From IMG/VR virus record IMGVR_UViG_2734482773_000007: a DNA stretch of 42,304 nt, one strand, 5' to 3'. The notes beneath the pieces are model-generated. The model saw nothing but the letters and a program-made list of their open reading frames with translations. It made no database searches and was not told where the DNA came from. Positions 1,874 to 41,979 of the stretch are shown in pieces; within the stretch, counting starts at the first letter, position 1, and the number at the start of each line of letters is the position of its first letter. Both the position numbers and the translations under genes were made by a program. The stretch comes from a virus. Taxonomy: Duplodnaviria > Heunggongvirae > Uroviricota > Caudoviricetes.

Positions 1874-2070
1874 TACCGGCTGCGACATTTTTGAATGAAA
1901 GCGTCGACATTTCGGCGCTCATAACGAACTACTTTTGCACTGAAACGAATTGGTGCCAGGATAGCCCGATGACGATGCTTAATATTCCACTCACATAGCG
2001 TTTTCTGTGTAATACCTAACTTTTGGCATACTTCATCCGGGGTGAGTAAATCGTCGGGTTTCTCGCTCAT
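1870..2070 (-). CDS. AlpA/excisionase-family small DNA-binding protein (putative Xis)
   Basis: 66-aa ORF, 4-bp overlap with the helicase gene, position next to int; LTPDEVCQKLGITQKTLCEW looks like a MerR/Xis-type helix-turn-helix. Confidence 0.6.
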   Translation of the reverse strand: MSEKPDDLLTPDEVCQKLGITQKTLCEWNIKHRHRAILAPIRFSAKVVRYERRNVDAFIQKCRSRY

Positions 2071-3461
2071 GCTATACCTCTCTTTTTCATGGCATCGAGC
2101 AGGATGTCCTGCACTGTTCGTTTTGAGTTGCGCCGCTCCATCACCATTTCGTCCATAGTGTCGGCAGCAATAATGTGGTGAATAAATACCGGACGATTGT
2201 GTCCGGCCTGTATCTGTCTGGTTGGGCCGATACGTTCAATAATTTGCTGATACTGCTCCAGGTCCCACCAGTGTGAGAAAAATACCAGTATGTTTCCGCC
2301 GTCCTGCATGTTCAGACCGTGGCCCGCGCTGGCTGGGTGTGCAAAGAGAACAGGAATCTTTCCGGAATTCCAGTCACGTAGTGTCTGTGGATCTTGGTCG
2401 AGGTGACGACCGCGAGGAAATGCTTTAAGCAAGCGTTCAAGATCGTGTTTCCAGTGATAAGCAACCAGCACAGGTGCGCCAGCTGCTTCGGTCAATATGC
2501 TGTCCAGCGCCTGTAGTTTGGTGTCATGCAGTTCTGACCAACTTCCGGCGTCGTCTGTGTATACTGCGCCACTGGCGATTTGCAGACACTTCAGTGTCTT
2601 TGCCGCGGCGTTCGGTGCTTCGATGCCTTCGCCATTCAGCTCGAGGAACATTTCCTTTTCCATTTCACGATACTGCTGACGGGCCTTCGGCGGCATATCC
2701 ACGCGGATTACGTTATGGATGGGGGCTTTGATATCGAACCAGTCGGCCGCATCCAGCGAGAGGGTCACATCGGCTAATGCTCGCTGTATTTCAGCCTGTG
2801 AGTGAGCAAACGGCTCCAGTTTGGTCCAGCTCTGCCCTGGAAACTGTATCGAGTTGAACCAGCGTGAGGTAAACGCGCCGTAAGTGCGTCCGAGACGTTG
2901 CCCCTGGTCCACAAACCACGCTTGTCCCCACAAATCTACCAGGCCGTTCGGTGCTGGCGTACCGGTGAGATTTATCCAGCGCCGGACATACTTATGCGCC
3001 ACTTTGCCCAGCGCCGCCGCGCGCTTACCACCACCTCGCAGCCGGAAGGATTTTAGCCGGGTGCTTTCATCCGGAATGACAGTACCGAACGGCCATCGTT
3101 CTCCCAATTCTTCAACCAGCCAGACAAGGTTATCGTAGTTGATGGTGAACACGCTTGCGTTGCTGTTCGCCAGCGCCGTAGAGCGCGCTTTGGCATTACC
3201 AACAATCGGCTGTACCTCGATATTGCGCAGATGCTTCCATTTCAGCGCTTCATCCGGCCATGTGCTTGCTACAACGCGTAGCGGCGCGAGGACCAGTGCG
3301 GGGCGTGTTTCTGCCCCTGCCATAAAGAGATCTTCCAGCGTAGTGAGCGTTGCCACGGTTTTACCCATCCCCATCCCTGCCCAGATGTTGCCGCGCAGGG
3401 TTTCGGTTTCGTGGTTGATAATGAGATCTTGGTAGGGGCGAGGTATATATTTTTGGGGCAT
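2067..3461 (-). CDS. SNF2-family DEAD/DEAH-box helicase
   Basis: 464 aa; Walker A GMGMGKT near N-terminus, DEST (DExx-like) motif, C-terminal helicase motifs; RBS GGAGCC 7 nt upstream of ATG. Confidence 0.85.
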   Translation of the reverse strand: MPQKYIPRPYQDLIINHETETLRGNIWAGMGMGKTVATLTTLEDLFMAGAETRPALVLAPLRVVASTWPDEALKWKHLRNIEVQPIVGNAKARSTALANSNASVFTINYDNLVWLVEELGERWPFGTVIPDESTRLKSFRLRGGGKRAAALGKVAHKYVRRWINLTGTPAPNGLVDLWGQAWFVDQGQRLGRTYGAFTSRWFNSIQFPGQSWTKLEPFAHSQAEIQRALADVTLSLDAADWFDIKAPIHNVIRVDMPPKARQQYREMEKEMFLELNGEGIEAPNAAAKTLKCLQIASGAVYTDDAGSWSELHDTKLQALDSILTEAAGAPVLVAYHWKHDLERLLKAFPRGRHLDQDPQTLRDWNSGKIPVLFAHPASAGHGLNMQDGGNILVFFSHWWDLEQYQQIIERIGPTRQIQAGHNRPVFIHHIIAADTMDEMVMERRNSKRTVQDILLDAMKKRGIA

Positions 3462-3477
3462 ATAATATGGCTCCTAA

Positions 3478-3511
3478 ACAACAAAAGGCCAATTTAGGCC
3501 TTTTGTTGTTT
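3478..3511. terminator. perfect 14-bp-arm palindrome (AACAACAAAAGGCC-N6-GGCCTTTTGTTGTT), possible bidirectional terminator
   Basis: Read directly; GGCC core stem followed by U-rich arm on both strands; sits immediately downstream of the AT-rich gene 3525..4442 and upstream of the helicase RBS. Confidence 0.45.
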
Positions 3512-3524
3512 TAAAAAATGTTAT

Positions 3525-4442
3525 TTATAATAGTGCTGTTACTATTGCATCTTTAAAAATATTTTCTTCTTCATTTATTAAAGGTGATGACAGATGAATA
3601 ATTACTTCTTTTCCTGTCAATACTATTTGCTCGACTTGAAATCCTGCGTTGTGTAGTCTTTGGCGTAACTTTTCTAGTGCTGATTTTGATATACTAAATC
3701 CTTCACTCCTTATAGTATAACTGGCAACTCCATTTTTAATAATATCTACAGAGTTGTCAATTTCCTGCTGCGAGTAATTTTTCGGTGAGTCGAAAAATCT
3801 GGATTTTGTCGTTGCTGTTGCCCTAAGAGATATCAATAATGATTTGATATCTTTAATCTCAGATGCCAGATACTCAGTTTCTGATACTTCTTTCTGGTCT
3901 AGTTGTGCAACTTTGAAAGTGCCAAAATGTTTGAGGAATGTTGTGTATTCAGGATCAGTTACTGACTTTAAATATGTTTCTTTTATCTTGCTCGCAAGTC
4001 TTTCTTTGAATAAATTGATTGATTGGTATCTTAAATCCGAAGGGTACTCTAAATGTTCAATTGATGAAATGTCAAAGCTATAAGGAGTGCGCTCGTCCTT
4101 AATAATTACGGTCGGTTTGTCAAATGCGAGACGCATTCCTAATTCAAACATTACATTAGCGTTTCGAGCACTTATATCGCAAACAACTATGGGGTTTTCA
4201 TAAAGATTTTGAACAATTCGTTTTTGTATTACTGCAACATCATCATCTGAACTTACCAAATTTGCCTTGAATCCGGCATCATTTGATGCTTCACAAATAA
4301 TGTCATGAACATTTCTCCAATGTCCAGTGGGATAACCTTCTATGTCCGCAATTGGCATAATAATGCCGCATATATGAGGTGGCATATTTTTGTTGTCTTT
4401 TACATCATCTTGGTTTATTTCTTTCGTTTGTTGCTTAGCCAT
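3525..4442 (-). CDS. AT-rich accessory protein: N-terminal TIR-like/ThsB-like domain plus ~170-aa C-terminal domain of unknown function
   Basis: 305 aa; codon usage visibly AT-rich versus neighbours; N-terminal pattern IIMPIADIEG ... NPIVVCDISARNANVMFELGMRLAFDKPTVII resembles the beta-strand / N-V-x-x-E-x-G core of TIR-like (ThsB/DUF1863-type) folds; RBS AGGAGT upstream. Confidence 0.5.
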   Translation of the reverse strand: MAKQQTKEINQDDVKDNKNMPPHICGIIMPIADIEGYPTGHWRNVHDIICEASNDAGFKANLVSSDDDVAVIQKRIVQNLYENPIVVCDISARNANVMFELGMRLAFDKPTVIIKDERTPYSFDISSIEHLEYPSDLRYQSINLFKERLASKIKETYLKSVTDPEYTTFLKHFGTFKVAQLDQKEVSETEYLASEIKDIKSLLISLRATATTKSRFFDSPKNYSQQEIDNSVDIIKNGVASYTIRSEGFSISKSALEKLRQRLHNAGFQVEQIVLTGKEVIIHLSSPLINEEENIFKDAIVTALL

Positions 4443-4457
4443 AGCTTACACAGACTC

Positions 4458-4742
4458 CTATTGTAATTTTTTGCCTAATATACATGAAAGCTCCTTACTA
4501 TCCAGTACTACCACGGTAAAGCCCAGTTTTCGCAGACGTTCATGCTCGCGCAACTGATCAGGTCGTGGTGGTTTGCCTGGTGCTTTGCATTCGACAAAAA
4601 CGATGCGACCGCCGGGTAGCAGAACAATGCGATCTGGTACCGAGCGGAGACCGGGAGATACGAACTTAAAGGCAACCCCGCCAGCCTTTTTTACTTCAGC
4701 GACGAGGTGCTTTTCGATTAGGTTTTCACGTTCATAGGCCAT
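4458..4742 (-). CDS. VRR-NUC domain nuclease
   Basis: 94 aa; PD-(D/E)xK-like core (VLLPGGRIVFVECKAPG); VRR-NUC commonly accompanies SNF2 helicases in phage replication modules. Confidence 0.75.
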   Translation of the reverse strand: MAYERENLIEKHLVAEVKKAGGVAFKFVSPGLRSVPDRIVLLPGGRIVFVECKAPGKPPRPDQLREHERLRKLGFTVVVLDSKELSCILGKKLQ

Positions 4743-5171: not shown

Positions 5172-5933
5172 TTACGAGGAAGCGTTAGCTATTTGAGCTT
5201 GTGTAAATTCGAAACCAGAATTTTGTAACCGTTGCACTAGACGAGGAACTGTTTCACGTACATGGTCGTTGAAATTCAGATACAAAATCCCGTTAGCATC
5301 AGAAGGCTGTTCTAGGTGCTGTTTCTGAAGGATTGCTACATTGCTGCGCCCTAAGGACGAAAGAAGCATACCCATCTCGAGTACAACGTTCTGTCTTGCG
5401 CGGGGTTGGATTTCTGCTTCACCGGCGCGCTTTGAGTATCCCATATCATCAGGTGTCAAAAGAACAATCCCGAAACGGGTAGCAGTTTGTCCTTGCCCAA
5501 TTTCACGTTCAAGCTCTTCAATAATGGTGAGTCCAGTCCCTCCCGTATTCTGCAAAATGAAATGGTCTGGTAATCCAAGTTTATGAAGGATTAGCTCAAG
5601 TTGCTCCTTTGCAGTATGGTCATGGCCGTGAACAATGAATATCTTTTTGGGGAGCTCAGATGGCTGTTCTACGGCTAGTGGTGTTGCCGTGGGTGGCGTT
5701 CCTAAATGGGTCATTATTGCAGTTTCAACATTGGGACGTTCTTGAGGGTTACCTTGAAACTGAATGGTCCGGGTGGTGTAAAGGTTAACAATTACGCCAT
5801 TCGTTAAACGATAGCAGTCACAAGTCTCACGCTGTTCGTGGGAAAAATTGGTGAACCCACACTCCCTCAAAAAGTCAGGAAAAGTTTCTCTCGGGTATGG
5901 ATAGGTGATCGGCATTTCAGTTAGTTCCTGCAT
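5172..5933 (-). CDS. two-domain accessory protein: N-terminal unknown domain plus C-terminal TIR-like domain (candidate anti-phage effector)
   Basis: 253 aa; C-terminal half KIFIVHGHDHTAKEQLELILHKLGL ... RFGIVLLTPDD ... ARQNVVLEMGMLLSSLGRSNVAIL matches what I recall as the TIR-like 'predicted nucleotide-binding' family signature (VFIVHG start, NV..E.G core); own terminator downstream. Confidence 0.55.
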   Translation of the reverse strand: MQELTEMPITYPYPRETFPDFLRECGFTNFSHEQRETCDCYRLTNGVIVNLYTTRTIQFQGNPQERPNVETAIMTHLGTPPTATPLAVEQPSELPKKIFIVHGHDHTAKEQLELILHKLGLPDHFILQNTGGTGLTIIEELEREIGQGQTATRFGIVLLTPDDMGYSKRAGEAEIQPRARQNVVLEMGMLLSSLGRSNVAILQKQHLEQPSDANGILYLNFNDHVRETVPRLVQRLQNSGFEFTQAQIANASS

Positions 5934-5997: not shown

Positions 5998-8061
5998 TCA
6001 ATCTTTTTTGTAGTGGTACGCCTCAAAACCGCCAGCGTTCAGTGGGATATCGGGCGCCCATTCGGGGTCAGTGGAGAGAAGCGCGGAAAGCGCTTTATCG
6101 TTGAAATCTTCTGTGTCAGGTGCTTCGGTGATCACCTCGTCGTGTACCGTCAGCACAATGCTGTAACCGGCATCTTCGATAAGCGGTATGTTTCCGGCCA
6201 GAACGTCGCGGGCGGCCGCCTGGGTGACGTTCTCCACCAGCTTTCCGCCGTAGGTTTTGAGTCGTTGCCATTTACGCGAATAAGAGTTAACACCCATGTA
6301 GGTGATATTCCCTTGTTCGATAACCGGAGACGGGTAGCATACAGCGCGTCCGGATGGTAGCTGTATGCGCAGCCACGCGCCATCGCGGCGGATTTTAAGA
6401 TAACCGCAATACAATGTTTTTTGCGGTGTGGCGATTGCAGTGCGGACGGTGCGCTCCAGTTCGTACCAGAAATCGCAGGTCGCCGGGTGCGCCCTGCGCC
6501 AGAGACGTTTAAGTGAGTCGCAGGCGATAAATACCCGTTCAGAAAGCCCGTAGGTTGACTTGCGTTTAACCGATTCGTCGTACCAGCTTTTCGCCTCGCG
6601 GATAACATCGCGGGGAATGTTTGGCAGTGCGGCGTTCGCCAGCTCGTCGAGATCGAGACCGTAAACCAGCGCAAAAGTGATGAAAGCCGATACACCACCA
6701 CCATAACCCAGACCGAGCTCCATGACTTTACCGATCTGACGCATGTGTTTATCAACATCATTTGGTGCAATATCGAAAGCTTTTGCATACGCCAGTTTAT
6801 ATAAGTCCGGACCCGTTCCGGCGTCGTACTCTCTGAATGCATTCAGTTTCCATTCTTCTCCCGCCAGCCATGCCAGCATACGGCCTTCAATGTTCGACAA
6901 GTCACTTACCACCAGCTTTTTGCCTGTTGGCGCGATAATGCAGCCACGTAACGCTGAACTGGTTAGTTCCATGATATTGTCAAACAGCAGGTCTGCACAT
7001 CCGGCTTTCAGTGCTTCGATGCCTTCGTCTATTTGTTCCTGTTTTAGTGAAGGGCGGGGAAGGTTCTGGGGCTGGAATAGCCGTCCGGCCCAACGACCGG
7101 TACGTGACGCCCCGCAGAACTGTAGCGTACCGCGTAAGCGCCCGTCGTGGCTTACGCCTTTCATCAGTGCCTTGTATTTACTGGTGCTGGTAGTACTGGC
7201 CTGCAGGCGGATAGCCAGCAGTTCTTTCACGGCAGATGGTAAATCGGGGTCGGCAATACGACGTTCCAGAGTACTGCGTTGCATGTCTGGTAGCTCCACA
7301 CCGTAGGATTCAACAATGTGCTTAATCAACGCGTCTCGTTGTGTGGCTGCCTGCACTTCGCCATCAGTCATTTCCTGTGTACGCTTTGCCAGGCGCTTTT
7401 GTTCCTGGTCTACCGCATCGATCGCAGCGCGTGCGAGTTCCACGTCCATGCAGACGCCCCGGTCGTTGATCTGCTGATCACGATGCCAGAGCGCCAGTTC
7501 TGTCCCCTGATAATTCCACTTCGGCAGACGTTTATAGACTTCGCGCATTGCCTCGATATCCAGTCCGGCGTAAGCAACAAAGCGCCGCCATTCTTCCGGG
7601 TGGGTTTTGCTGGTGGCCCGGCGCAGTTTGCTGTTTTTCGGGCGTGGCTTACAGAACAGCTGGATCAGCGCTTTACCTTCTTTGTCCTTCGCTTTGTCTT
7701 GCGGGACGCCTAGTACTTCGCAGAGTTCCCCCAGAGACCCCGGGAGACCGTGCGCCAGCGCCTGCACCATTGTGTCGCGCCAACGTTCGATTGGCGGTGC
7801 CAGGCGCGGCATTGCATAACGCAGGACGGTGCGGTCGAAGTGAGAGTTATGGAAATAAAGCAGGGTTTCAGGGTCTGCGATTGCTTCGTATAAGCCGTGT
7901 GGAATACCACCACCGGCAGTGATATCCCACACGTTTACGGGTCCGTCGTTGATAGCCCATGCGAACAGCATCACTTCAACGCCTTCGGCATACGCATGGG
8001 TACCGTTCGTAATAGGGATTTCGCAATAGGTTTCTAGGTCACCCCATAGTATATTGGACAT
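5998..8061 (-). CDS. family-A DNA polymerase (PolA-like, with N-terminal 3'-5' exonuclease-like region)
   Basis: 687 aa; overall resemblance to phage PolA proteins; sits within helicase/nuclease/primase replication module. Confidence 0.75.
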
Positions 8062-8117: not shown

Positions 8118-8387
8118 GTGTTTAGCTTTGGTATCGGAATACTTTCATTGATAGGTATTATTGCTTTCCCCATTCTTTATATTTTAGGGAGAATAGTTCG
8201 GGCTGGTGGCGCATGGCTCGAACGTGAAGAAGGTCCTAAGGATCGTGTTCTTCCCAAAATTATAATTTTTGCGCTTATTGGGTTCTTTCTTGGGTGTTTG
8301 GCTCAGCCTGTATGGGACAGCATTTCGGTATGTAGAGACTATGGCAATCCAATAGGGAAATGTCTTTTTAAATTCAATGAATTTTAA
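8118..8387 (+). CDS. small membrane protein on the opposite strand (moron-like)
   Basis: 89 aa, GTG start with AAGGAG RBS 6 nt upstream; two hydrophobic segments (FGIGILSLIGIIAFPILYIL and IIIFALIGFFLGCLA); AT-rich; orientation opposite to the surrounding operon. Confidence 0.5.
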   Translation: MFSFGIGILSLIGIIAFPILYILGRIVRAGGAWLEREEGPKDRVLPKIIIFALIGFFLGCLAQPVWDSISVCRDYGNPIGKCLFKFNEF

Positions 8388-8454: not shown

Positions 8455-9093
8455 TTAAGCATCTACCCCTTCGTCAGAAGGGAGGCCGATCATTTCGTTG
8501 AGAGTTTCGCGTCGTATAGCTGGCGGAAGCGGAGCAGATGGTGCATCGGCTGGCAGAAGTTCTTTAGCTTCAGGCCACTCTTCCAGCAGGCGCTTAACTG
8601 TGCGCACTTTACTGAGTGCAGCGCTGACATTCTGTCGAATGTCTGACTCATCGCTCTGTATCTGCTCATAAAGTGCATCAAACCCGTAAAACTCTGTAAC
8701 TAGAGGGTCATTTGCCAGAAGGGTAAATTCCCCCGGCGCGATTTTGTGAATATGGTCTGGTGACCCTGATTCATATCCTCGATAGTTACCGTTGAAATAG
8801 ACGGTAACCCGAGAACCTGCCAGATTCAGACACATGTAACACTCTTTCCTGATAATATTATTGGCGGTTTTTAATGCTTCGGGGAATTTTGATACCAGTG
8901 TTTCTATTTTTTTTATAATTTTTAATATTTCAGCTTCTTTCTCTACGCCCCCGATAGCTGCAAGCCGAACACGTTCGGCCCATTCAACACGAGCAGCTCG
9001 TAGTGCTGATTTACGTTTGGGGATACCCGCTTTCTCAAGTGCGTTATTGATGATTTGAGTTTTAAGGTGATTAGTTAATACGGGCTGTGACAT
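8455..9093 (-). CDS. hypothetical phage protein
   Basis: ORF extends to 9123 but GAGGGA RBS precedes the Met at 9093 (MSQPVLTN...); no recognisable motifs. Confidence 0.5.
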   Translation of the reverse strand: MSQPVLTNHLKTQIINNALEKAGIPKRKSALRAARVEWAERVRLAAIGGVEKEAEILKIIKKIETLVSKFPEALKTANNIIRKECYMCLNLAGSRVTVYFNGNYRGYESGSPDHIHKIAPGEFTLLANDPLVTEFYGFDALYEQIQSDESDIRQNVSAALSKVRTVKRLLEEWPEAKELLPADAPSAPLPPAIRRETLNEMIGLPSDEGVDA

Positions 9094-9144
9094 TATTCTT
9101 TCCCTCATGAGATACCCCAGCACGTAGCTGGGGGATGAATATTT

Positions 9145-40491: not shown

Positions 40492-41037
40492 TTATGTGTG
40501 AGATGAGTTATAAATAATTTCAGAGTGAAATTTAGTAATGAATGTGGAGTCATCAGGAATGTCATGCAGTACCAATGCATGAGCTCCTATTTTTACATTA
40601 TTCCCTATATGCACTTTGCCACCAAGGATGGTGGCGTTACAGCCAATGGTTACATTATTTCCTATGACAATATCCATATCATTAAATTCACCGCGAAGTC
40701 CAATAGTTACCCCTGGCTTAATTGAACAATTTTCACCTATTGTAACTTTGTGACCGATAACAACGCCATTGAGATAAGATATGTCGAACCCTTTACCAAT
40801 ATTTACAGTTAAGGGAACGGTTACATTGTATTTATCAAGAATGAAGCGTTCTATTTTTCCTGCAATCTTTCGCCGGTATCCTCCTTTATCAAAAAGATAT
40901 TTTGCTACGCGCCACCAAAATAAATAACGTAATCTTCTGTGTTTTATTGCGCGAACAATTGCTTTTCGCCAGGAGAAAGGGCGTTTATAACCTATTACTT
41001 CATAGTGTATACAGTTTTTAAGTTCACTAATATTCAT
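40492..41037 (-). CDS. hexapeptide-repeat acyltransferase (left-handed beta-helix; candidate lysogenic-conversion acetyltransferase)
   Basis: 181 aa; repeated [LIV]-G-x-x-x-x-I-G units (VVIGHKVTIGENCSIKPGVTIG ... IGNNVTIGCNATILGGKVHIGNNVKIG); AT-rich; convergent with Tfa, 10-bp gap. Confidence 0.7.
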   Translation of the reverse strand: MNISELKNCIHYEVIGYKRPFSWRKAIVRAIKHRRLRYLFWWRVAKYLFDKGGYRRKIAGKIERFILDKYNVTVPLTVNIGKGFDISYLNGVVIGHKVTIGENCSIKPGVTIGLRGEFNDMDIVIGNNVTIGCNATILGGKVHIGNNVKIGAHALVLHDIPDDSTFITKFHSEIIYNSSHT

Positions 41038-41331: not shown

Positions 41332-41979
41332 CTATGAAGCTAATTTGTTTAATTTCATTTGTAGCGACTTTACTTCTTGGTCGATAATGTTGAATCCCTT
41401 ATTGACTGCATCTCTTAGTTCTGCATCAATATTTTTTATCCCTTGAGCATAATCTACCATTACATCTATTTTTTCATCATGTAATCTCTTATACATGGTT
41501 TTATCTTTGTTATTGTCAGCCATACCAATAAGGATTTTTTCATAATCCTCAATGAGTTTGTTGTTTCCTTTAAATGATTGTATTAATGACCGTGAATATG
41601 TGTAGATATTAATTATTGAGTCTCTGGCAGAATCATTTAGTTTTGCAATGACATTCGCATTTTGCTCATAGAATGTGAAATTATCATCCCCTACAGGGAA
41701 AGTGAGAATTAACATCTGTCCGGGTTTGATATTATCAATGTGTGTTTTCATCCTTTTATTATATAAATTGATTAGGGTGAAAACTTCTCCCTTAACACCT
41801 TTTAATACTGAAAGTTGCAATTCAAGGGATTCTCTTTCTGTCTCTACTTTAGACAGCTTAGCTTGTTGGGTAACTCCTTTTAGGGTAAACCATCCGCCAA
41901 TAAGAGTACCAACTAGAGCTGTGAGGGAGGAGGATAACCATCCAGGAATGCTATTTAAAAAATTACTAAATTCACTCAT
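41332..41979 (-). CDS. AT-rich hypothetical protein with N-terminal transmembrane anchor
   Basis: 215 aa; N-terminal hydrophobic segment LSSSLTALVGTLIGGWFTL then coiled-coil-like region; strongly AT-rich. Confidence 0.5.
   Translation of the reverse strand: MSEFSNFLNSIPGWLSSSLTALVGTLIGGWFTLKGVTQQAKLSKVETERESLELQLSVLKGVKGEVFTLINLYNKRMKTHIDNIKPGQMLILTFPVGDDNFTFYEQNANVIAKLNDSARDSIINIYTYSRSLIQSFKGNNKLIEDYEKILIGMADNNKDKTMYKRLHDEKIDVMVDYAQGIKNIDAELRDAVNKGFNIIDQEVKSLQMKLNKLAS

Follow-up and report, generated by a model that had tools for sequence, protein, structure and literature searches.

The window, by which the whole analysed stretch of DNA is meant throughout (42,304 nucleotides; IMG/VR virus record IMGVR_UViG_2734482773_000007), is an Escherichia coli prophage adjoining yfhL. 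The analysis concerns one minus-strand gene of its replication module, at 3525-4442, whose product is annotated as 'hypothetical protein' (WP_001551510.1) and which is referred to below as the target gene. Judged by profile comparison, residues 24-208 of this product are a homolog of the hydrolase module of ThsI, the effector of type VIII Thoeris, within the NDT/DrHyd branch of the TIR-DrHyd-SLOG class (PMC9503650). The module is followed by a fast-evolving tail, the gene family stands alone without a conserved neighbour, and the target gene is mobile, swappable cargo at a hotspot within the replication module of the prophage. The probability that it is mobile cargo encoding a stand-alone, self-sensing relative of ThsI, a nucleotide N-glycosidase used in defence, was put at about one half.

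Homology of the enzyme module to ThsI

A tblastn search of plasmids returned remote matches (26% identity) to proteins named 'TRAFs-binding' or 'tetratricopeptide repeat', and proteins of about 405 residues with a TPR-S domain (PF20308) were located on the E. coli plasmid pGMI17-003_1 (locus L095) and on A. baumannii AB105 unnamed3 (locus L096). Both are flanked by small ThsB_TIR genes; at L095 a SLATT gene is present as well. The same architecture, 'CMP hydrolase and TPR', has been described for ThsI, the effector of type VIII Thoeris; ThsI defends E. coli and is toxic when canonical cyclic ADP-ribose (cADPR) is supplied, and T2 and T6, phages of the T-even group, served to activate the two type VIII systems tested (bioRxiv 10.64898/2025.12.03.692087).

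Comparisons of the target-family profile (A2) were carried out using hhalign under identical conditions. The L096 protein was matched with a probability of 97.1% (E value 5.6e-11), residues 23-208 of the target aligning to residues 4-191, and the L095 protein with a probability of 96.6%. A profile of 40 TPR-S proteins (A5), called ThsI-like by their architecture (TPR-S plus adjacent ThsB genes) and not by comparison with the tested ThsI proteins, was matched with a probability of 97.8% (E 7.8e-13) over 184 columns at 26% identity; all 40 carry both TPR-S and MAP3K_TRAF_bd. The motif D-I-S-x-x-N-x-N-x-x-[F/Y]-E-L-G-x-R, together with the F-D pair and the Tyr that come after it, does not vary in either family: D89, S91, N94, N96, E100, R104, T119, D124 and Y133 are invariant in 150 representatives of the target family, and the counterparts D74, S76, N79, N81, E85 and R89 are invariant in A5. 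Since the profile match covers 184 columns and the motif is shared, the whole conserved region, and not just its first 110 residues, was assigned to the ThsI-type module. An earlier note on this DNA, made from the sequence alone, had quoted two peptides, which were found at residues 27-36 (IIMPIADIEG) and 83-110 (NPIVVCDISARNANVMFELGMRLAFDKP), and had left a C-terminal region of about 170 residues unrecognised. That division has to be redrawn, as the conserved module runs to about residue 208 and the variable tail comprises only about 97 residues (209-305).

The likeness to ThsI thus includes an N-terminal hydrolase module of about 185 residues, the invariant motif with its F-D pair and Tyr, and a helical extension after the core, and both families occur on mobile elements. 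Unlike ThsI, which depends on cADPR-producing ThsB TIR proteins, the target family is without TPR-S and MAP3K_TRAF_bd and has a hypervariable, ACT-like tail instead, and no ThsB TIR gene was found adjacent to its members in 77 target-family loci. Pfam gave no TPR-S, MAP3K_TRAF_bd or TPR match for the target, and none of the three was among the 25 Pfam families most often matched by the 150 representatives. The loop after strand 1 reads CGIIMPI...HW in the target and MGFGKKTD in ThsI, and the substrate or ligand may therefore differ.

Two side observations concern the TPR-S proteins. The L095 locus (NZ_CP031135.1, 165.9-169.1 kb) combines the ThsI-like TPR-S protein with two ThsB-type TIR genes and a divergent SLATT/DUF4231 gene beside a Tn3 transposase, and looks like the combined type VII and type VIII arrangement mentioned in the Thoeris preprint. 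Genes annotated with a 'TRAFs-binding domain', each 26.5% identical to the query, are also carried by many IncHI-type plasmids of Citrobacter, Enterobacter, Klebsiella and Raoultella.

Relationships to known enzymes were examined at the level of families and folds. The target matched PF05014 (NDT) with E 0.1 and 13.2 bits, below the gathering score of 28.8, over positions 58-104 of that model, and the invariant Glu100 is inside the matched stretch; among the 150 representatives, 105 matched it at E≤0.1 (best 2.4e-5), none shown above the gathering score. Like NDT, DNPH1 (Rcl) and MilB, the target family has a Glu in 'x-F-E-L-G' at what appears to correspond to the catalytic-Glu position of those enzymes, and by this analogy Glu100 is a candidate catalytic residue and the module would be expected to have nucleotide N-glycosidase activity. 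It departs from them in its additional conserved helical segment, in its variable C-terminal domain and in being mobile cargo and not metabolic. An AlphaFold model of the target (predicted local distance difference test score 72.9) displayed a flavodoxin-like core (about residues 23-135), a long helix at 139-162, a second helix at 188-208 and a C-terminal β-β-α-β-β-α domain, with a conserved but poorly modelled TFLKHFG segment. Foldseek searches of the PDB with the full-length model gave weak, mixed flavodoxin-like matches, which support the fold class only; the closest folds include MilB and DNPH1. A TIR-like flavodoxin fold and a similarity of fold to solved NDT-class enzymes were both found. 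A sequence search of PDB chains with two family profiles returned nothing relevant. Dag-type integron DNA glycosylases were rejected as a match, as they have a Lys/Asp glycosylase active site and a different fold.

The earlier note had likened the N-terminal region to ThsB-type TIR-like domains, a reading which would make the target a second TIR defence gene of the prophage, producing an NAD+-derived signal or acting as a TIR NADase, and maybe working with the PDC-S35 TIR gene upstream (Table 1). Several observations point this way: a match to PF10137 (E 0.011; 16.2 bits, below the gathering cut-off of 24.7), a weak match to the PADLOC 'TIR effector' model (1.1e-6), a BLASTP alignment with the neighbouring TIR protein in which NVMFELGM is paired with NVVLEMGM and HLEYPSD with HLEQPSD, and the co-occurrence of both genes in this prophage lineage and in locus L185. 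However, the target matched neither ThsB_TIR (PF08937) nor TIR_2 (PF13676) of Pfam even at E≤1, and the hhalign probabilities were 0.3% against a bona fide ThsB TIR (PF08937, 5e-17) and 1.7% against the CAP12-type (PDC-S35) TIR of the prophage itself, as opposed to 97-98% against the ThsI-like proteins. Of the 150 representatives, only 17 matched PF10137 at the cut-off at which 105 matched PF05014, and neither a conserved effector partner nor a ThsA-like one was found in the 77 loci. An obligate pairing with the PDC-S35 gene was rejected because each gene occurs without the other, PDC-S35 without the target and target homologs without PDC-S35. A TIR enzyme of the ThsB kind was consequently regarded as very unlikely, and the resemblance to TIR domains holds at the level of fold and superfamily and no further: ThsB shares with the target only the general flavodoxin-like, TIR-related fold class. 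The CAP12/Pycsar TIR (PF10137) shows local resemblance in 'N-V-x-x-E-x-G' and 'H-L-E-x-P-S-D' and is likewise an effector-type enzyme fused to a second domain in a single protein, with the difference that the enzyme domain is C-terminal in PDC-S35 and N-terminal in the target.

The target matched two PHROGs of no assigned function and, in Pfam and NCBIfam, only models at sub-threshold scores; one of the 150 representatives carries an EAD11 conflict-system adaptor domain. A word-indexed search identified 4,466 relatives, and an exhaustive HMMER search identified 9,503 clusters at E≤1e-3 and 1,394 at E≤1e-30, counted as clusters at 50% identity. A scan with the strict motif located 335 loci among 185,579 species genomes, in Pseudomonadota, Bacteroidota, Acidobacteriota, Verrucomicrobiota, Planctomycetota, Lentisphaerota and Nitrospinota. 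Over residues 24-200, any two of the 150 representatives are 50-65% identical, with a median of 56% across phyla.

The variable tail and the solitary gene

The C-terminal tail, of about 95 residues and ACT-like in the model, diverges far more rapidly than the module to which it is joined. Its identity to the tail of the target was 78% where the N-terminal modules were 98% identical, 44-62% at a module identity of 90-92% and 21-28% at 81-85%, and similarity was undetectable at a module identity of 76% or below. Among 145 representative tails, BLAST similarity was detected in only 16 of 10,440 pairs. In the sole pair with unsaturated synonymous divergence (dS), the ratio of nonsynonymous to synonymous divergence (dN/dS) was 0.02 for the module and 0.40-0.45 for the tail, dS being saturated in all other pairs; the tail evolves roughly 15 times faster than the enzyme. 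The tail values denote either strongly relaxed constraint or partly diversifying selection; positive selection was considered and, at a dN/dS of 0.40-0.45, was not demonstrated. A conserved N-terminal module with a fast tail is what enzymes linked to recognition domains typically show; the tail was annotated as a putative sensor or regulatory domain.

The same data bear on whether the gene could be selfish, as a toxin or addiction module, or a remnant in decay without selected function. Its low guanine-cytosine (GC) content, mobility and patchy distribution, and a copy interrupted by IS1 in one E. coli strain, are what such an element might display. However, the N-terminal module is under strong purifying selection, to judge from its dN/dS and from its identity across phyla; the open reading frames are intact at about 290-310 residues in the 77 loci, where homolog length is 280-330 residues in nearly all cases; and no conserved antitoxin-like neighbour was found. 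A selfish or decaying element is therefore highly improbable.

Genes within five positions of a homolog in the 77 loci (672 in total) were clustered, yielding 632 clusters and no recurrent family, and a phmmer search of the same genes with ThsB, ThsI-like and SLATT queries found no relevant partner. A two-gene system was rejected on both counts, and the family stands alone. The immediate neighbours include integrases, transposases, AriA/AriAB, dCTP deaminase, PDC-S01, PDC-S31, PDC-M53A, HEC-09 and SoFic, as well as proteins with TIR_2, which account for 2 of 145 immediate neighbours and are dissimilar to the ThsB genes of L095 and L096. Homologs were also found in the nin region of Klebsiella lambdoid prophages, in a cassette of the Vibrio parahaemolyticus superintegron and on a small integrase-bearing island of Pseudomonas.

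In the phage collection, relatives were found only in temperate phages, and in IMG/VR they are encoded on 157 contigs. Of the 58 contigs that are 20 kb or longer, 24 have the gene no more than 3.9 kb from one of their ends, where a uniform position would give 13. As a side observation, Streptococcus prophages (including SM1 gp11) and many temperate Staphylococcus aureus phages encode distant relatives, 30-34% identical over the enzyme core (E 1e-4 to 1e-5); with their much shorter matches these may form a separate Firmicute branch.

The frequency of the family in temperate phages and on IMG/VR contigs could also be explained by counter-defence, in which a sensor-less hydrolase of the Thoeris-effector type would destroy or sequester cADPR or ADP-ribose-derived signals, or pre-empt NAD+-based immunity. 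The family is homologous to the module of a cADPR-responsive effector, the DrHyd superfamily includes ADP-ribosyl cyclases and hydrolases acting on cADPR (PMC9503650), and the target gene is co-oriented with early replication genes. Many chromosomal copies, however, lie outside any recognisable phage, in a sedentary integron or among housekeeping neighbours, in Acidobacteriota, Bacteroidota, Verrucomicrobiota and other phyla; DrHyd and TIR domains were under-represented in viral counter-defence repertoires in the survey by the Aravind laboratory (PMC9503650); and a diversifying tail fits recognition of varied invaders better than that of one conserved small molecule. Counter-defence was accordingly judged quite unlikely.

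The cargo slot and the hairpin

Of 5,426 complete E. coli genomes, 24 contain the target gene at an identity of at least 99%, one of the copies being split by IS1. In this copy, from E. coli JNEC-KY203 (NZ_AP045179.1, 1259561-1261333), the match to the 996-bp query falls into two parts that together extend over 1,773 bp, 777 bp more than the query, and the annotation there includes an IS1 transposase. The region from the helicase to VRR-NUC, used as a query, was matched by 159 E. coli genomes, of which 24 carry the target and most have other content in the slot: Rha with two Arc-like genes, a DUF6338 protein, a protein with a BstA_C domain, or one to three hypotheticals. Several of the unannotated slot proteins are 236-292 residues long (loci L011, L012 and L098-L101). 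Most of the other cargo is on the opposite strand; the target is co-oriented with the replication genes.

Homology to the sibling prophages L011 and L012, as detected using blastn, breaks at 3443/3444 and at 4494/4495, and the swap also replaces the first six or so codons of the helicase gene and the last twelve or so of VRR-NUC. The exchanged segment therefore consists of the target gene, a hairpin downstream of it and the extreme ends of both flanking genes. The GC content of the target is 0.344, and 0.258 at third codon positions (GC3), in comparison with 0.49-0.54 for the flanking genes and 0.493 for the whole window. The gene had been described in the earlier note as compositionally distinct from its neighbours, and the GC profile bears this out, with a low-GC gene lying between the higher-GC helicase and VRR-NUC genes. 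Variable presence at a fixed site and foreign composition, which were taken together as the mark of cargo, were both found. The proposal that the gene was horizontally acquired and accessory, and not a core replication component, is upheld by its presence in only 24 of the 159 genomes, by the breakpoints, by the alternative cargo and by the unrelated contexts of its homologs; the gene is not universal at this position in related prophages, and no search assigned it a replication function.

A parallel is offered by single-gene defence cargo of prophage hotspots, for example BstA, which is likewise a lone gene of foreign composition variably present at a fixed slot, BstA being an occupant of this very slot in sibling prophages. 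The protein family is unrelated to that of the target, and the orientation of the target with the replication genes sets it apart from the other, mostly antisense cargo. In a Klebsiella aerogenes prophage, integrated at a different chromosomal site, this slot is taken by an ortholog with 75% identity. By way of a side observation, a 78%-identical homolog on a JGI metagenome contig (L186, P0003 locus) lies behind a Prok-JAB/NLPC_P60 (tail-tip K-like) gene and not beside replication genes, and close relatives of the cassette therefore occupy another region of phage genomes too.

The target gene begins 15 nt past VRR-NUC, and direct reading of the sequence placed its Shine-Dalgarno sequence (AGGAG) across the stop codon of VRR-NUC, at 10-11 nt from the ATG. 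A promoter-like site upstream (4504-4477; Table 1) agrees with the consensus at 9 of 12 positions, a weak indication, since the number of such sites in the region is not above that in shuffled sequences; the gene may equally be co-transcribed with VRR-NUC as transcribed from a promoter of its own.

This placement in the replication module, on the same strand and with a Shine-Dalgarno sequence that overlaps the end of VRR-NUC, would be expected of an enzyme that serves the phage's own nucleotide metabolism, a DNPH1/Rcl/MilB-type N-hydrolase of (deoxy)nucleoside monophosphates (dNMP/NMP) reshaping or cleaning the pool for its replication or DNA modification. The ortholog in the same slot in K. 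aerogenes, the presence of MilB and DNPH1 among the closest folds and an Nmad5 gene in the window are consistent with such a role, as is the DUF4406 gene beside VRR-NUC in sibling prophages, DUF4406 being presumably another NDT-like family. However, the gene is missing from most of the 159 genomes, in which the slot holds unrelated cargo; its composition is foreign to the module; lone homologs are found in integron cassettes, in lambdoid nin regions and beside housekeeping genes, with no replication or modification partner; and a hypervariable tail is unexpected in a metabolic enzyme. DUF4406 was also ruled out as the closest relative, the hhalign probability for a DUF4406 protein being 0.75%. 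A metabolic enzyme benefiting the phage was therefore held to be unlikely, and the hotspot, integron and neighbour contexts agree more with an accessory or defensive function than with a metabolic one.

The exchanged segment contains, on the helicase side of the target, a perfect hairpin with 15-nt arms, which starts 13 nt after the stop codon of the target (3525-3527) and ends 14 nt before the helicase ATG (3461). Its layout is an A-tract, GGCC, the 6-nt loop, GGCC and a U-tract, the GC core being 4 bp and the U-rich 3' arm pairing with the upstream A-tract. As RNA of the gene strand it folds with -25.3 kcal/mol (z = -5.9; 0 of 200 shuffles fold as well), and a calculation of our own puts the chance expectation for a perfect, short-looped inverted repeat with arms of 14 nt at about 1e-3 per 42 kb. 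A scan for consensus terminators did not call it at 3476-3511. In L185, the 89%-identical homolog is followed by a hairpin whose arms are the same and whose loop differs, and hairpins of like design and other sequence follow the orthologs in K. aerogenes L102 (AAAAAAAAAAGGCC / GGCCTTTTTTTTTT) and Enterobacter L015. No such hairpin is present after the Klebsiella lambdoid copy, and an attC-like sequence stands in its place after the Vibrio copy.

The palindrome described in the earlier note is thus real and does separate the target from the helicase gene; its arms are 15 nt and not 14, and it lies downstream only and does not flank the gene on both sides. A role as insertion boundary or recombination site was rejected, as the hairpin is single and one-sided and its design is kept after orthologs with a different sequence. 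It belongs to the cargo because it is inside the swapped segment, and is best read as the target's own terminator-like or 3'-end-stabilising element, resembling a bidirectional terminator. Since the helicase Shine-Dalgarno sequence directly follows it, the hairpin could also modulate helicase expression.

Proposed mechanism and neighbouring genes

The catalytic activity, substrate, mode of activation and defence phenotype that we infer for the target are as follows. In the lysogen the enzyme would be held inactive, until a cue of a superinfecting phage, a protein or a small molecule, is read by the variable tail and switches it on, probably by oligomerisation. The active enzyme would cleave the base-ribose bond of an essential nucleotide (NAD+ or NMP/dNMP), the collapse of the nucleotide pool would stop phage replication, as in abortive infection or growth arrest, and the lysogen population would be protected together with its resident prophage. 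A bolder version, which may be entertained tentatively and is less probable than not by a clear distance, regards the target as the prototype of a very large, unannotated class in which a single protein serves as immune receptor and a near-invariant ThsI-type N-glycosidase is joined to a diversifying ACT-like recognition domain of about 95 residues, each tail variant reading a different phage cue and bypassing the TIR/cADPR step. Nucleotides such as 5-hydroxymethyl-dCMP and 5-hydroxymethyl-dUMP are substrate types of MilB and DNPH1, and in a sharper form of the proposal the enzyme may hydrolyse phage-specific modified nucleotides of this kind, which would make it the nucleotide-pool-level counterpart of anti-modified-DNA glycosylases.

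Several points weigh against a defensive, self-sensing enzyme. No experiment or publication tying the family to defence was found in the literature on DrHyd/NDT defence, and PADLOC has no system model for the target beyond the weak 'TIR effector' match. As it shares the strand of the replication genes and begins 15 nt downstream of VRR-NUC, the target might be expressed with lytic replication and not in the lysogen; the 75%-identical K. aerogenes ortholog in the same slot keeps a role beneficial to the phage plausible. Many immediate neighbours of homologs are housekeeping genes, so that the defence-island signal is modest. The structural model is of moderate confidence only, and a tail dN/dS below 1 is compatible with simple relaxed constraint. 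The mechanism of ThsI is itself hypothetical in its source paper, which proposes manipulation of the nucleotide pool and leaves the substrate open (bioRxiv 10.64898/2025.12.03.692087).

The kind of enzyme module is already known from ThsI and NDT/DrHyd proteins, and what appears to be new is that such a module stands alone with a hypervariable ACT-like tail, and that the family, though unannotated, is so large. No description of the family was found in the DrHyd/NDT defence literature, the E. coli TIR survey, DefensePredictor or the domain-centric screen, recent work on prophage-encoded E. coli defences being outside the scope of this search. If the proposal of a self-sensing ThsI relative is true, it adds a widespread single-gene defence family, distributed over many phyla and temperate phages and annotated by none of the tools used. 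It would also mean that a Thoeris effector enzyme is able to work without TIR signalling by swapping TPR-S for a fast-evolving domain, a concrete case of signalling systems and self-contained sensor-effectors interconverting. Because the enzyme module is highly conserved, the substrate of one member would probably reveal the function of ThsI too.

The features of the window are collected in Table 1.

Table 1. Features of the target gene and its surroundings in the window
Feature	Position	Strand	Details
Target cargo gene	3525..4442	-	ATG start; 305 residues; predicted stand-alone ThsI-like nucleotide hydrolase with variable C-terminal domain
Hydrolase module	3819..4373	-	Residues 24-208; flavodoxin-like NDT/DrHyd-type core, helix 139-162, TFLKHFG segment, helix 188-208 (modelled)
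Putative active-site motif	4131..4178	-	Residues 89-104, DISARNANVMFELGMR; D-I-S-x-x-N-x-N-x-x-[F/Y]-E-L-G-x-R
Variable tail	3528..3818	-	Residues 209-305; fast-evolving linker and β-β-α-β-β-α ACT-like domain (modelled), in the position of TPR-S in ThsI
Perfect hairpin	3476..3511	-	Arms 3476-3490 and 3497-3511, 15 nt each, 100% complementary; 6-nt loop
Exchangeable cargo segment	3444..4494	.	GC 0.340; blastn breakpoints versus L011 and L012
Promoter-like site	4477..4504	-	TGGATA, 16 nt, TATATT; lies upstream of the target, within the 3' end of VRR-NUC, where GC is low
SNF2 helicase	2067..3461	-	GC 0.544, GC3 0.581
VRR-NUC	4458..4742	-	GC 0.488, GC3 0.432
PDC-S35/CAP12-type TIR gene	5172..5933	-	253 residues; 730 bp upstream of the target
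PolA	5998..8061	-	GC 0.543, GC3 0.573

The integrase gene of the prophage is at 470-1873, and three induced phages (vB_EcoM-689R2, 611R5 and 606R2) are 98% identical to the prophage of the window. On the minus strand the replication module runs in the order PolA, the PDC-S35/CAP12-type TIR gene, a gene for a 64-residue protein, VRR-NUC, the target and the SNF2 helicase. The protein of the TIR gene has a C-terminal CAP12/Pycsar-type TIR domain (PF10137 at 2.9e-31) and matches PDC-S35, a candidate single-gene defence of PADLOC, over the full length (6.8e-109), so that with the target there are two different TIR/DrHyd-class cargo genes within 2.5 kb of the prophage. With this second candidate of the TIR class already nearby, the slot between the SNF2 helicase and VRR-NUC genes was flagged as a cargo hotspot of this prophage family that is worth mining. 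In sibling prophages the PDC-S35 gene is replaced in that part of the module by the DUF4406 gene.

Further genes of the window were noted in passing. Between PolA and a DUF2815-type single-stranded-DNA-binding gene lies a minus-strand gene (8455-9123) for a protein of 222 residues with a full-length match to Nmad5 ('nucleotide modification associated domain 5', PF18757, 1.1e-56), which hints that this phage family may modify its own DNA or nucleotides. Antisense to the replication operon, between PolA and the Nmad5 gene, a plus-strand open reading frame of GC 0.393 (8118-8387), which had no Pfam match, encodes 89 residues resembling a small membrane protein with two hydrophobic stretches. Two minus-strand genes of low GC content at the far end of the window, a hexapeptide-repeat acyltransferase gene (40492-41037, GC 0.357) and a gene without a Pfam match (41332-41979, GC 0.332), are probably further cargo or lysogenic-conversion genes.

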